A stretch of DNA of 64,000 bases from Eledone cirrhosa (lineage: Eukaryota): the NCBI GenBank assembly GCA_964016885.1, contig OZ024760.1, positions 7,254,001 to 7,318,000 of the forward strand. Reading direction: 5' to 3'. The notes beneath the pieces were generated by a model. That model was not told where the DNA came from. It saw nothing but the letters and a program-made list of their open reading frames with translations, and ran no database searches. The position numbers and the translations under genes were made by a program. This document shows, piece by piece, positions 11,950 through 63,552 of the stretch. Position 1 is the stretch's first letter. Each line of letters begins with the position of its first letter.

Positions 11950-12141
11950 GAACGAAGGAAATGTGGTAAGGAACCAGGTGGACCATAACGCACCAAAGTA
12001 CTCAATACTTAGGGTAGTAGAGTGGGTAATAGGAACGAGTAGGACCCCGACGGCTGAGCTCAAGCCGTTTCGACGGCTAATTCGTCGAATTAGCCGTCGA
12101 AACGGCTTGAGCTCAGCCGTCGGGGTCCTACTCGTTCCTAT
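11950..12141 (-). mobile_element. Short copy of the 28.6-kb fold-back family
   Basis: Same tail; perfect 56-bp arms 12029-12084 and 12086-12141 around one T; (TA)n flanks. Confidence 0.75.
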
Positions 12142-13559
12142 ATATATATATATATATATATATATATATATATGTATACACACACAAGCACACACACACA
12201 GTAATACAGGAAACCAAATTAAATCACGTCCATGTAAGAGGAAGTACTACAATAATTTTTTAATGGCAAAAATCTGTGATTGCAGTCACCTCGCACGATC
12301 AAACGGGATTTAAGTCTTCATCACACCTCCAGTCTTTCTTGCTTTCTAGTGTATCTAGTACTACATTATTAAATGTGCTTTGTTTAATAATAATAATAAT
12401 AAAAATGATTTCTTTATAACAAAGGTTTCTGATTTAGGCACAAGGCCAACAATTTTGAACGAAGGCGGGGGAGGGAGGTGGAGGGCGATTAAACGACCCC
12501 AGGGCGATCTGAAATCAGAATGTAAAGGGACATAATAATGGTTTCTGATTTAGTTACAAGATCAGCAATTTATGGAGAGAGGCAAAAATTGATTAAATCT
12601 ACCCCCACCCAGTGCATTACTGGTACTTTATTTTATCGACCCAGTAAGGATGAAAGGCAAAGTTAACCTCGGCGGGATTTGAAATCAGAATGGCAAGGGC
12701 CGTAACTCTATGCGTCAAATCATGGCGTCCGATCCTCTACTGATACTGCCAATCCAGTGCACTTAATTGTTTCTACTTTTGGCACAAGGCCAGCAATTAA
12801 CCAGTATATTACTGGTACTGTAAAGAGAAATAATTGTTTCTACTTTTGGCACAATGCCAGCAAATACCCAGTGTATTACTGGTACTGTAAAGAGAAATAA
12901 TTGCTTCTACTTTTGGCACAATGCCAGCAATTACGCAGTACATTACTGGTACTTTATTTTATCGACCCCGTAAGGATGAAAGGCAAATCCCTCGGCGGGA
13001 TTTGAACTCAGAATGACAAGGGCCGTAACTCTATACGCCAAAGCAGGGCGTCCGACCCACTACCGATACTGCCAATCCAAACAAAAAAGCAACTGTAGGG
13101 CGTGGTTTGGTGAAGTTATTGGCTGCTATTTCTAGCGAATCGAGCTACCGCGTTAAAAAACTTCCGCTTAGTCCGTAGTTACATGTTAAATTAAACCCCT
13201 TGGTCAGAAGAATTACAACCGTGACCACCACGATATTCAGATATCGTTTATGGCAGGGGTTCTCAAACTTTTTGGGCCACCTCCCCACTCACTGCCACGT
13301 AATACCATCAGCGCCCCCCACCCTATTTCCAGAGAGACCTGCCTACATAGAAATTGTAAATAATATATAATAAATAAAATCAATAATTTATATGATATAT
13401 TCTAAGTATAAATAAATATTATATAGTATTTTACTATATTTATATATAATATGTATCATTTGATATTTAATATACTATTATATCATCTCTACTGCCCCCC
13501 TTGGGCCCCGGTGCCATCTGGACCTCATGCTCAACAGTTTCTTTCAAACACATTCTTTT

Positions 13560-13980
13560 TCAGACTGTTGTTAGGCTCAAAGCACTGCATGCTTTCTGAA
13601 AAGAATCCATGAGATGTTCCATGTCACTCTCGGAATGAGCGACAAGATCCCAGTCATCAGCATACAGAAATTCGCGTATCAGCGATGTCAATATCTTCGA
13701 TTTGGCAGCAAACCTTCTGTCTGACATTGAACATTTTACCTGTTGTTCGATATTTAATGTGAGCAACTTTCAAAAGCCATCAAGGAAACCATTAGAAAAG
13801 TACAACGCAAACAGAGTCGGCGCTGGAATGTCTCTTTGCTTAACACCATTTTCAACCACAATGGGATCAGAGAGCTTACCACCCACATTAACACTTGCCT
13901 TTATTCCATCATGGAAACCTCTCAACACAGACAAATTTATCAGCACACTCGAGCTTCCTGAGAATCTTCCACGGGGCAAT
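13560..13980 (-). mobile_element. RTE-clade LINE RT fragment
   Basis: NGVKQRDIPAPTLF and REFLYADD motifs. Confidence 0.85.
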
Positions 13981-15156
13981 TCTATCTATCTATATATATA
14001 TAACGGAGGAAATGTGGCAAGGAACCAGGTGGACCATAACGCACCAAAGTACTCTAGTCCAGAATTAGCCGTCGGGGTCCTACTCGTTCCTATATATATA
14101 TATATATTCGAAGATACATACATATATATACACACACACACATGTATATACTGTATATAAACACACCCATACATTCCCGGGTTGTGTCGGAGGATAACCA
14201 CAGTTAAAAAAAGCTACTCAATACATTGGTAGAGTATCGGCATCTTTATATAGAGAAATGATTTCTACAGGAATAAAACTGTTTCACTCGTACGAAATCA
14301 TCATTATGTGTGAGACTTCTCTGTAGCAATTTCGTTATTCTCGATTAAAATTTTATTAGAAGTCAGTACTAACAAACCAGAGCCAAACCCCCGAGTTTTC
14401 AGCTAGCTAGGGGACACACTCACCCAGCCTACATTTCAATCTGTCGGCCCTCACTAGAGGAAGAACCCCCCCCCCCCCCCTCACTTCCCCCGGTTGTATT
14501 CTAGTTAGTGTTATAAATTATACAGCCCTGCTACTAACATTATGAACCTAGTAAATTTAGTGATCAATAACAACGAAATAGGGCCCCTAGTGTTGTTCTG
14601 TAATCTGGAAATAGTATAGTTATAACTTAGAAATTGCTGATACCTTAACAACCGGCTTTTCCCCCCTACCCTCTCTCTCGCTATCTTTTTCACAACATAC
14701 ACAACAGCTGTTATCAATATGTGTGTGTGTGTGTATATATATATATATATATACAAAATATAATCAATTTTGAACTGATCTCCAAATAAAAAACATGTAT
14801 GTTGTTCTTATATATACATTAAATTGTGATAGGAATGGGGGAAGAGGCGTAGATGATTGCAAATATTCAACTCAATTTAAACAGATGATTATATAATTAC
14901 TTAACTGTTGACATATCTCATTTTCAATACACACATGTGTATGTATGTGTGTGTGTATATATATATATTCTGAATTTGTTTAGCAAGATTCTTTATCTGA
15001 AAACGTGTGTTGAAACCGATATTGTTATACTTTGGGAGGGTCATGTTGCCAATAAGAAACACACGCACCAGTTGCTTTCACTTCAATTTATTATAATAAA
15101 TTTATAAATTTCCGGTTGGTTGGTTCGTTCCACAACCAGATGGTTGTTTATATATT

Positions 15157-15199
15157 GTCAAAGTTCTTTCGTCACACATTCTGCGACCTCTTCAGTGAC
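15157..15199 (-). ncRNA. Minimal hammerhead-like motif (mirror copy, same strand as AP3D1)
   Basis: Reverse complement of 15316-15358 with one A>G change in stem II (G.U wobble). Confidence 0.55.
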
Positions 15200-15315
15200 T
15201 GGGGATTCTTTTCTTTGTTTTTGTGCCTCTCCTTTGTTCTGTCCTACGCCATCAGAAACAAGATGGCGTAGGACAGAACAAAGGAGAGGCACAAAAACAA
15301 AGAAAAGAATCCCCA

Positions 15316-15358
15316 GTCACTGAAGAGGTCACAGAATGTGTGACGAAAGAACTTTGAC
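15316..15358 (+). ncRNA. Minimal hammerhead-like motif
   Basis: GTCA-CTGAAGA-G-GTCACA gaatg TGTGAC-GAAA-GAAC-TT-TGAC; one extra nt before stem II; CUU triplet. Confidence 0.55.
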
Positions 15359-61480: not shown

Positions 61481-61821
61481 ATCATCATCATCATCATCAT
61501 TTCATTTTACGTCTGCTTTTCCCTGCTTGCAAGGGTGGGACGAGAACTGATTCTGGCTTGATTTCTACAGCTGGATACCCTTCCTAACACCAACCTCATT
61601 TACAGTGAGTGCTGGGTGCTTTTTTGCCGTGGCACCTCCACGACCACTTTACAGTGGAATGATATGGACCCCAGTCCCTATCATCTCATTTCTACAGCTG
61701 AGTAAACTGGAGCAATGTGAAATAAAGTGTCTTGCTCAAGGAAACAACACATCACCTGGTCTGAGAATTGAACTCACAACCTTTCGATTGCAAGGCCAAT
61801 GCTCTAACCACTAAGCCATGT
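61481..61821 (-). mobile_element. SINE family A
   Basis: Near-identical to the 5948-6286 copy. Confidence 0.9.
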
Positions 61822-62180
61822 ATGTATGTATATATATATATATATATATATATATATATATATATATATATATATATATATATATATAAAAACAAATAAC
61901 GAAACGAAATTAAATTTCGTTTTGCTTCTAACTCACTTTTGTATGACTGACGCTTAAACAATTAAGTTAAAAGTGTACATCTACATATGTATACGGAAAT
62001 ATTAGTATGCATATAAATACACACATGTATACATATGTACATGTACTGAGTTTTTCACTGGACACTTTACTGTGAGTGTCCAGCTAGTCTGTATGTAACC
62101 AAACAGACAAACCGGGTTTTAGAGTCATACGGGTTTTCAAGGAAACACATTTCCTCTATTCTCCAGAGAGCCAGACAGGA

Positions 62181-62223
62181 ATATTGGACTAGTTTCGATG
62201 TTATTACATCTCATCAGCAATAT
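62181..62223 (-). ncRNA. Minimal type I hammerhead ribozyme (inverted copy, same strand as ABAT)
   Basis: Exact reverse complement of 63034-63076. Confidence 0.87.
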
Positions 62224-63033
62224 ATACCCATCTTCCGGCTTCTCTAGAGAATCGTAAAAGCACATATCGTTATATGCTTTTTCTATGAAAATTAGTAGTG
62301 GGCAGACTAATTTGCATAGAACGTGAGTCATTGTACGCACCGGTTCAGCGGAAACGATAAAAACAAATAACGAAACGAAATTAAATTTCGTTTCGCTTCT
62401 AACTCACTTTTGTATGACTGACACTTAAACAATTAAGTTAAAAGTGTACATCTACATATGTATACGGAAATATTAGTATGCATATAAATACACACATGTA
62501 TACATATGTACATGTACTGAGTTTTTCCTGGACACTTTACTGTGAGTGTCCAGCTAGTCTGTATGTAACCAAACAGACAAACCGGGTTTTAGAGTCATAC
62601 GGGTTTTCAAGGAAACACATTTCCTCTATTCTCCAATATGTTTCCTTGAAAACCCGTATGACTCTAAAACCCGGTTTGTCTGTTTGGTTACATACAGACT
62701 AGCTGGACACTCACAGTAAAGTGTCCAGTGAAAAACTCAGTACATGTACATATGTATACATGTGTGTATTTATATGCATACTAATATTTCCGTATACATA
62801 TGTAGATGTACACTTTTAACTTAATTGTTTAAGCGTCAGTCATACAAAAGTGAGTTAGAAGCGAAACGAAATTTAATTTCGTTTCGTTATTTGTTTTTAT
62901 CGTTTCCGCTGAACCGGTGCGTACAATGACTCACGTTCTATGCAAATTAGTCTGCCCACTACTAATTTTCATAGAAAAAGCATCTAACGATATGTGCTTT
63001 TACGATTCTCTAGAGAAGCCGGAAGATGGGTAT

Positions 63034-63076
63034 ATATTGCTGATGAGATGTAATAACATCGAAACTAGTCCAATAT
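63034..63076 (+). ncRNA. Minimal type I hammerhead ribozyme
   Basis: ATATTG-CTGATGA-GATGT aata ACATC-GAAA-CTAG-TC-CAATAT: perfect 6-bp stem I, 5-bp stem II, intact core, palindromic ACTAGT stem III, GUC site (cut after 63070). Confidence 0.87.
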
Positions 63077-63552
63077 TCCTGTCTGGCTCTCTGGAGAATA
63101 GAGGAAATGTGTTTCCTTGAAAACCCGTATGACTCTAAAACCCGGTTTGTCTGTTTGGTTACATACAGACTAGCTGGACACTCACAGTAAAGTGTCCAGT
63201 GAAAAACTCAGTACATGTACATATGTATACATGTGTGTATTTATATGCATACTAATATTTCCGTATACATATGTAGATGTACACTTTTAACTTAATTATA
63301 TATATATATATATATATATATATATAAAGAGAGAGAGAGAGAGAGAGAGAGAGAGAGAGAGAGAAAGAGAGAGAGAGAGAGAGATGAGATATGATAAACC
63401 CAGCCTAATCCAAGCCAGAAATAGTTCCAGCTGCTGTCTTTGTAGAACAATAAATATCTCACTTGCTTCTTTCCAGGAGGAAATGGTAAATTTTCTCCTA
63501 TTGATTCCTGATTTGGTGTATTGGAAGAATTCTATGAGACAAAAGACACAGA

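Follow-up and report, generated by a model that had tools for sequence, protein, structure and literature searches.

Probable 5′-truncated Penelope-like insertions at (TA)n tracts in an octopod genome, and a candidate RNA signal in their tails

Penelope-like elements (PLEs) of the endonuclease-bearing (EN+) type, amongst them Penelope/Poseidon, Neptune, Nematis, Hydra and Naiad, leave insertions with a characteristic anatomy. In the parts of the literature available to us, which set the scope of all the comparisons with published work made here, these insertions are described as 5′ truncated, accompanied by an adjacent inverted truncated copy, extended at one end by a tail of 30–40 bp and biased towards (TA)n (PMC8557442). 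The same layout has been reported with palindromic junctions and with an open reading frame (ORF) that starts inside the pseudo-long terminal repeat (pLTR) and tail (PMC3846280). Here, we describe a 64-kb stretch of the genome of the octopod Eledone cirrhosa (contig OZ024760.1, positions 7,254,001–7,318,000; hereafter the window) that contains a varied set of inserts with this anatomy. We consider it highly probable (roughly 0.9) that these are heavily 5′-truncated insertions of at least seven unrelated EN+ PLE families, or of non-coding derivatives moved by them.

Further properties of PLEs bear on the comparison. A U3-A8 variant of the hammerhead core and pairs of opposite-strand hammerheads 100–700 bp apart have been described as PLE traits, and a circular-template model has been proposed for these elements (PMC4209133). 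The protein of an anole PLE (PAc; Poseidon, Anolis carolinensis) cuts AT-rich DNA on both strands in vitro and starts cDNA synthesis at two sites within the RNA, one at either boundary of the tail, the hammerhead being dispensable for insertion in this system (PMC11167929). Hydra-1_Obim and three Octopus Naiads are listed with a (TA)n preference (PMC8557442), and 31 recently active Penelope-like families have been tabulated for O. vulgaris (PMC13282606). The marks of the Hydra clade are RWK and DKT motifs, a CxCX5C linker, an EN domain lacking CCHH and its place in the RT phylogeny. The insertion pattern, the hammerheads and the (TA)n-targeted PLEs of Octopus are therefore already in print; the octopod stub families described below are new.

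Architecture of the inserts

When the masked window was scanned for inverted repeats with no use of the site list in an earlier note on this DNA, head-to-head inverted repeats were recovered at all five main sites of that note, with arms spanning 12032–12138, 15023–15512, 28711–29115, 52275–52439 and 61961–63296. The note's claim of a common (TA)n–tail–arm–loop–arm–(TA)n layout is borne out by this result, as is that of a 50–100-bp extension on one side only: the tails measure 82 nt (insert at 11950), 53 nt (14968), 80 nt (28631), 99 nt (52174) and 72 nt (61889). At each of the five sites the right arm ends directly (0 nt) at a tract of at least four TA repeats and the left arm begins 54–100 nt inside the opposite TA tract, against a background of 1.4% of unmasked positions lying within 8 nt of such a tract. 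Three sites listed as weaker cases (22570, 29627 and 60817) have the same structure in decayed form, with the qualification that the 60817 insert has the opposite polarity and a decayed tail and that 22570 is flanked by (GA)n/(CT)n adjoining (TA)n. The 'short loop' does not survive as a general trait. It is merely the unshared 5′ part of the longer arm, ranging from 3 to 103 nt, the latter at 52174.

A ninth two-armed insert (4092–4770), absent from the earlier note, was also found, and within-window BLAST together with descriptor searches yielded additional copies at 11596, 14003, 26522, 36604, 3880, 46070, 18558, 14190, 15572, 11178, 19000 and 21550. In eight of ten copies beyond those of the note, a fixed internal landmark is followed within 80 nt by a (TA)≥4 tract (binomial P 3e-6, against a background of 0.13). 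The lengths of the two arms are correlated (Spearman 0.81, n = 9, boundaries placed by eye), so that the two arms of an insert generally break off at comparable points, which agrees with the palindromic junctions of PMC3846280. The inserts differ in age, with arm identity ranging from 100% down to about 78%. An imperfect (TA)n array of 2.5 kb (43572–46069) is directly followed by one of the copies (46070).

The hammerhead always reads along the strand ending in the tail. For type I hammerheads, a descriptor that was widened after the U3-A8 variant had been seen gives seven matches in 64 kb, none of them outside the inserts at 14968, 28631, 52174 and 61889, compared to a mean of 0.3 and a maximum of 2 in 100 block shuffles; restricted to the canonical core, it gives five matches against 0.12. 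At the Rfam gathering score no hammerhead is found in the window. Below that score the 52174 motif matches Hammerhead_1 (E 6e-4) and the 61887 motif matches HH9 (E 2e-4), with no Rfam match for the motif of the 28630 insert. The statement that the inserts usually carry a hammerhead needs correction: a complete motif is present at four of the eight sites named in the note, but only the 3′ part is left at 11950, 22570, 29627 and 60817. It was also observed that 5′ truncation points or inversion centres often fall within or just upstream of the hammerhead (11178–11310, 18558–18685, 46070–46215, 12085, 60855, 4535).

As the earlier note stated, sequences differ between families, and at least seven unrelated families can be distinguished. 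We label these A (inserts at 11596, 11950, 14003, 28631 and 29627), B (14968, 26522 and 36604), C (52174), D (61889), E (3880 and 22564), F (six copies), G (21550) and H (4092). The type I hammerhead is complete in families A–D, whilst the cores of E, F, G and H each have at least one change.

Family A shows most clearly how ends and centres behave. Its insert at 28631–29118 (− strand) has an 80-nt tail, identical 192-nt arms (0 differences in 192) and a 21-nt spacer, and lies in an intron of a Josephin-domain gene. That at 11950–12141 (−) has an 82-nt tail, 52-nt arms (0 differences in 52) and a 3-nt centre inside hammerhead stem II, and contains no complete hammerhead. A third (14003–14092, −) consists of a partial tail joined head to head to a tail-less arm, with the same two outer ends and no inverted repeat. 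Across these three young inserts the tail-less end is identical and the tail end agrees to within 2 nt, yet the centres are all different. Between the arms at 28631 and 11950 there are two differences in 52 nt; both changes are present in both arms at 28631 and in neither arm at 11950, which implies that a single template supplies the mirror arm anew at every insertion, unless the arms were homogenised later. The hammerhead at 29010–29103 (+; mirror copy 28723–28816, −), a descriptor match, has the U3-A8 core variant and an extended stem II, and its minimum free energy fold is a three-way junction (z −1.67). With a stem III of 6–7 bp it would be expected to act as a monomer, the minimal motifs of families B, C and D being predicted to require dimers. 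Two subfamily copies complete the set, one (29627–29790, −) whose tail-less arm exceeds the other in length and reaches about 12 nt deeper into the tail, and an older one (11596–11770, −) comprising a single arm with a tail adjoining (TA)n.

The family B insert (14968–15516, −; 53-nt tail) carries hammerheads at 15320–15354 (+) and 15195–15161 (−). An ATG frame begins eight codons before the tail-less end and continues through the tail (25 aa), an arrangement from pLTR into tail that is like those of PAc and Adineta Pen2a, and with its ORF start inside the pLTR family B looks Penelope/Poseidon-like. Further copies lie at 26522–26713 and 36604–36632 (within-window BLAST). In family C (52174–52440, −; 99-nt tail), located in an intron of the 4-aminobutyrate aminotransferase (ABAT) gene, the arms share only 31 nt; the 103-nt spacer belongs to the tail-less arm and contains the hammerhead (52355–52386, +).

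Family E comprises a decayed two-armed insert (22564–22690, −; 64-nt tail) and a second copy (3880–4050) with a decayed U3-A8-type hammerhead, and family F a decayed two-armed insert (60808–60940, +; tail on the right) and single-arm copies at 11178–11310, 14190–14340, 15572–15730, 18558–18685 and 46070–46215, each with a mutated Hydra-style hammerhead. By eye, the family F core (U before GAAA; an ACAG/CUGU stem III cut after A) resembles those in the Hydra table of PMC8557442 file S2, although every F copy is mutated. Family G is a single arm (21550–21820, +) with a decayed minimal hammerhead core at 21690 and a 3′ end adjoining (TA)n. Family H is an old two-armed insert (4092–4770, +) whose left arm is broken by another repeat (about 4175–4421) and whose tail starts at 4721. 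Segments between TA tracts at 49340–49492 and 31148–31325 have decayed hammerhead-like cores and are possibly more old PLE ends.

Family D (61889–63296, −) is distinct in being built from a 471-nt non-coding unit with a 72-nt tail. Each arm amounts to 1.4–1.6 units with one hammerhead (63040–63070, +; 62217–62187, −), the arms differ at 4 of 662 nt, and there are stops in all three sense frames of the translated part of the unit and no long frame. Both arms contain the same tail-to-5′ unit junction, which shows that the tandem was already present in the template and did not arise by later local duplication. Two side observations were made on this family. A perfect hairpin of 11 bp closes its tail immediately short of the outer end (61900–61922, 62371–62395), unlike the bulged hairpin described below, and a motif upstream of the hammerhead is found both here (62898–63030) and in family A (28860–28890), in opposite orientations. 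This motif is octamer-like and a possible internal promoter element.

A bulged hairpin in the tails

The tails of the otherwise dissimilar families A, C, E and F have a motif in common, in which a 4-bp stem and an inner stem of 3–6 bp are separated, on the 3′ side, by a two-base UU bulge. A descriptor of this motif also found it in family H (4727–4753, +; z −3.16), which had not been used to build the descriptor. The family C hairpin (52246–52267, −) has a z of −1.94 and that of family A (28679–28702, −) is weak alone (z −0.58), with further family A examples at 12000–12023, 29677–29700 and 11646–11669. In family E it lies at 3983–4008 (+) and in family F at, for example, 14216–14235 (−) and 18625–18644 (+). 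The hairpin is not present in families B, D and G.

In its strict form the descriptor has ten matches in the window, against a mean of 2.25 and a maximum of 7 in 200 shuffles; eight of the ten are in the families used for building, one is unassigned and one exposed the family H tail. Allowing one mismatch abolishes the enrichment (26 matches against 23.5). The unassigned match (51113–51146, +) lies 49 nt upstream of a TA tract and is either chance or an old remnant. Across 13 copies, 86 of 91 cells are paired, with two-sided, compensatory changes at four of seven positions, and when one copy is taken per family all 35 of 35 cells pair, a value reached by 0.03% of column shuffles; here the registers were set by descriptor and by eye, and family H had been selected for pairing. 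The decayed copies at 22564 and 60808 were excluded from this count because half of the hairpin is missing.

The tail-less end lies upstream of the hairpin by 8 nt in family A, 7 nt in C, 6 nt in H, 8 nt in F and 5 nt in E, the exception being the insert at 29627, where the tail-less end falls inside the hairpin stem.

Could the motif be conserved as protein rather than RNA? In five F copies one frame gives 20 synonymous against 13 non-synonymous pairs, compared to 0/33 and 1/26 in the other frames, as a coding sequence might. Several F copies have stops in that frame, however, the variable sites fall on loop and wobble positions of the hairpin, and the Hydra-1_Ajap hairpin precedes the ATG by about 90 nt. 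These three observations favour RNA structure over coding, and this is the reading that we prefer.

Examination by eye of the six Hydra consensus sequences in PMC8557442 file S7 finds the hairpin clearly in three (Hydra-2_Amil, Hydra-2_Ajap and Hydra-1_Ajap), imperfectly in Hydra-1_Crog and as a remnant in Hydra-1_Amil. It is absent from Hydra-1_Obim, which the supplement of that paper lists as being without a pLTR. For five families the hairpin suggests a place in the Hydra clade, and A, C, E, F and H are most likely members or derivatives of it. No published description of the bulged hairpin was found in the literature covered, which excludes most subscription papers, some supplements and the Repbase/Dfam entries, and the available Hydra section of PMC8557442 does not mention it. 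We regard it as a candidate signal or anchor that might place the inner start of reverse transcription.

Origin of the inserts

The case for PLEs rests on the correspondence, point by point, between the anatomy of these inserts and that published for EN+ insertions: the inverted, 5′-truncated, head-to-head copy, the tail at one end only with ends fixed between copies, the type I hammerhead of the pLTR, oriented towards the tail, partial tandems, and (TA)n targets that hide any target duplication (PMC8557442; PMC3846280). With the Hydra clade, including Hydra-1_Obim of Octopus bimaculoides, the inserts have (TA)n targeting in common, and possibly the canonical type I hammerheads too, and to PAc they can be likened in that two reverse transcriptase (RT) start sites would bound the tail, with a start in a stem-loop and AT-rich cutting of both strands (PMC11167929). 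The window inserts differ from EN+ PLEs in being only 90–1400 nt long with no ORF attached, and in two of them the tail-less arm is much the longer. We infer PLE membership from these likenesses, and the earlier note's suggestion that a diverse set of ribozyme-bearing elements targeting TA microsatellites is or was active here agrees with them.

Several results weigh against this assignment. No GIY-YIG or PLE-type RT frame was detected by Pfam among the 226 of 368 stop-to-stop frames of at least 55 aa that were scanned (low-complexity frames and those touching the 61887 insert were left out), as the earlier note had also concluded, nor could an RT/GIY-YIG ORF be linked with any family. A protein search with the family B tail frame gave no match among four candidates, an alignment of eight tail frames none of 1947, and Pfam none for four tail frames; comparison of tail frames to 1.84 billion protein representatives produced only four matches, which were repeat-driven and false. 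Pattern scans of metagenome contigs with the family A and family F motifs were likewise empty (0 and 0). By eye, no family matches Hydra-1_Obim or the compared 5′ parts of Naiad_Obim/Ovul. Finally, the tails, at 53–99 nt, are longer than the published 30–40 nt, and target-site duplications are unreadable within (TA)n.

Long, near-perfect inverted repeats flanked by TA are also what would be expected of miniature inverted-repeat transposable elements (MITEs) or foldback DNA transposons that target microsatellites, with the hairpins as terminal inverted repeats (TIRs) and TA as the target duplication, and O. vulgaris is rich in both MITEs and TIR elements (PMC13282606). Here, however, a fixed extra tail is always found on one side, so that the repeats are not terminal on both; centres differ between copies of one family and many copies are single-armed; and the family A insert at 14003–14092 has both fixed ends with no inverted repeat at all. 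The variable centres and fixed asymmetric ends effectively rule MITEs out, and the seven hammerheads against 0.3 in shuffles add to this. What the earlier note had said would overturn its reading, namely fixed symmetric TIRs or a background level of hammerheads and TA flanks, is therefore not what is seen, both being far above background. It is just as improbable that the inserts are fold-back artefacts of sequencing or assembly at unstable TA tracts. Perfect palindromes do occur at 11950 and 28630, and such structures are noted as troubling assemblies in PMC8557442, but the arms of the old inserts at 60808, 22564 and 4092 have diverged to about 78–83% identity, the ends recur at the same base in independent loci, and artefacts would not spare a fixed tail. 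Rather less far-fetched, though still improbable, is that the families are remnants of the Naiad clade rather than of Hydra, Neptune or Poseidon. Naiads share the architecture and (TA)n bias, occur in Octopus, and in some cases have a split 'half core' that recalls the long stem II of family A (PMC8557442); the same source describes them as lacking canonical hammerheads and as long inactive in cephalopods, whereas B, C and D have canonical cores, A has the full three-way fold, and the arms of A and D are 99–100% identical.

A more serious contender, which we rate at somewhat under even odds, is that the inserts stem from stand-alone, ribozyme-bearing RNAs, SINE-like (short interspersed element) or retrozyme-like, moved in trans by PLE proteins. 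Family D is the most plausible case. Its 471-nt unit lacks a long frame, and in both arms the repetition continues beyond the tail, the outcome expected if the template were circular or multimeric; circular templates have been proposed for PLEs (PMC4209133). Retrozymes have themselves been proposed as non-autonomous PLE derivatives (bioRxiv 10.64898/2026.07.22.740005). Family D shares with the animal non-LTR retrozymes described there and in PMC7229834 a tandem organisation of non-coding units, each bearing a single type I hammerhead whose minimal stem III is palindromic. Apart from one possible source study, a run search matched parts of the D unit to runs from four more studies, carrying four other organism codes, at shares of 0.21–0.31; 13 rows with shares under 0.2 were left out of account, and no RNA run was among those listed. 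Set against this, the definition of retrozymes in the bioRxiv report requires at least two consecutive units each with a complete hammerhead and family D has one hammerhead per arm and fewer than two full units, its unit exceeds the 220–390 nt of PMC7229834, and it bears the full PLE insertion signature of inverted arm, tail and TA target, which we have not found reported in the available retrozyme literature. Moreover, a re-mobilised partial tandem of two truncated copies, an ordinary PLE arrangement, gives the same picture from a single locus. Family D may thus resemble a retrozyme-like circle or multimer, with the partial tandem fitting this one locus equally well. The mechanism of insertion is unchanged under either account.

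Insertion by a PLE enzyme could produce these structures as follows. By analogy with the anole work, an RT/GIY-YIG protein would bind its RNA near the pLTR and nick both strands of a (TA)n tract. Synthesis of cDNA would then be primed at two fixed positions on the RNA, the outer giving the arm with the tail and the inner the arm without, the tail itself being the RNA between the two start sites. Both copies would stop early, usually near one point at or just upstream of the hammerhead, before joining head to head, and the hammerhead would be carried along because of its position just upstream of the start sites. The fixed asymmetric ends, variable but coupled centres, hammerhead polarity and TA targets are directly visible in the inserts; the enzyme, the RNA intermediate and ribozyme cleavage are presumed. 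Possible primer pairing at the inner end amounts to 3–4 nt in families A, B and H and to only 0–1 nt in C, D and F, which indicates that pairing is not required.

Putting the hairpin and family D together, we tentatively suggest, with the odds against the combination as a whole, that Hydra-clade PLEs carry a conserved and undescribed cis-signal, a 7–9-bp hairpin with a two-base bulge (UU or UA) on its 3′ side, situated in the tail 5–8 nt downstream of the inner RT start and about 40–70 nt upstream of the outer, which might serve as a protein anchor for measuring out the RT starts, and that the machinery of PLEs might have inserted family D as a circle or multimer akin to a retrozyme.

Genomic setting and significance

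Parts of several host genes are present in the window. ABAT exons extend across 48951–53671 (−; Pfam Aminotran_3 in three frames), one exon having 88% identity to Octopus sinensis and 79% to Argonauta, and the family C insert occupies one of the introns. Two Josephin-domain exons (26974–32244, −) correspond to profile positions 1–30 and 99–143, and between them lie the family A inserts at 28631 and 29627, giving a 192-bp perfect hairpin in the intron. An Adaptin_N frame (1043–1357, −; E 5e-6) is probably an exon of another host gene.

Other repeats include broken RT frames at 25121–26049 (−), with a similar fragment at about 13540–13975. The frame at 25321–26049 matches RVT_1 (E 4e-6) and is attached to no insert, and we take it to be a long interspersed element (LINE) of RTE/CR1 type. 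SINE tRNA-like heads (21864–21921, 23186–23243 and 61761–61818) score 28–30 bits with the Rfam tRNA model; several directly adjoin TA tracts.

Such stubs are common here, with about 20 pieces in the 64-kb window; they will probably be classed with MITEs or unknown repeats, and within introns they give rise to long double-stranded hairpins. Since the pattern of insertion was already known, their value is practical. Family D would provide a mechanistic link of retrozyme-like units to PLE enzymes, one that is made through the insertion signature and not through phylogeny. The most promising lead is the bulged hairpin, which keeps a set distance to the tail-less end and lends itself to a direct mutational test. 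The two internal start sites of PLEs have been mapped, as far as the available text of PMC11167929 goes, for one element only. If our reading is correct, PLEs, as the sister group of telomerase, would have in this hairpin an equivalent of the RNA elements by which a template is positioned.

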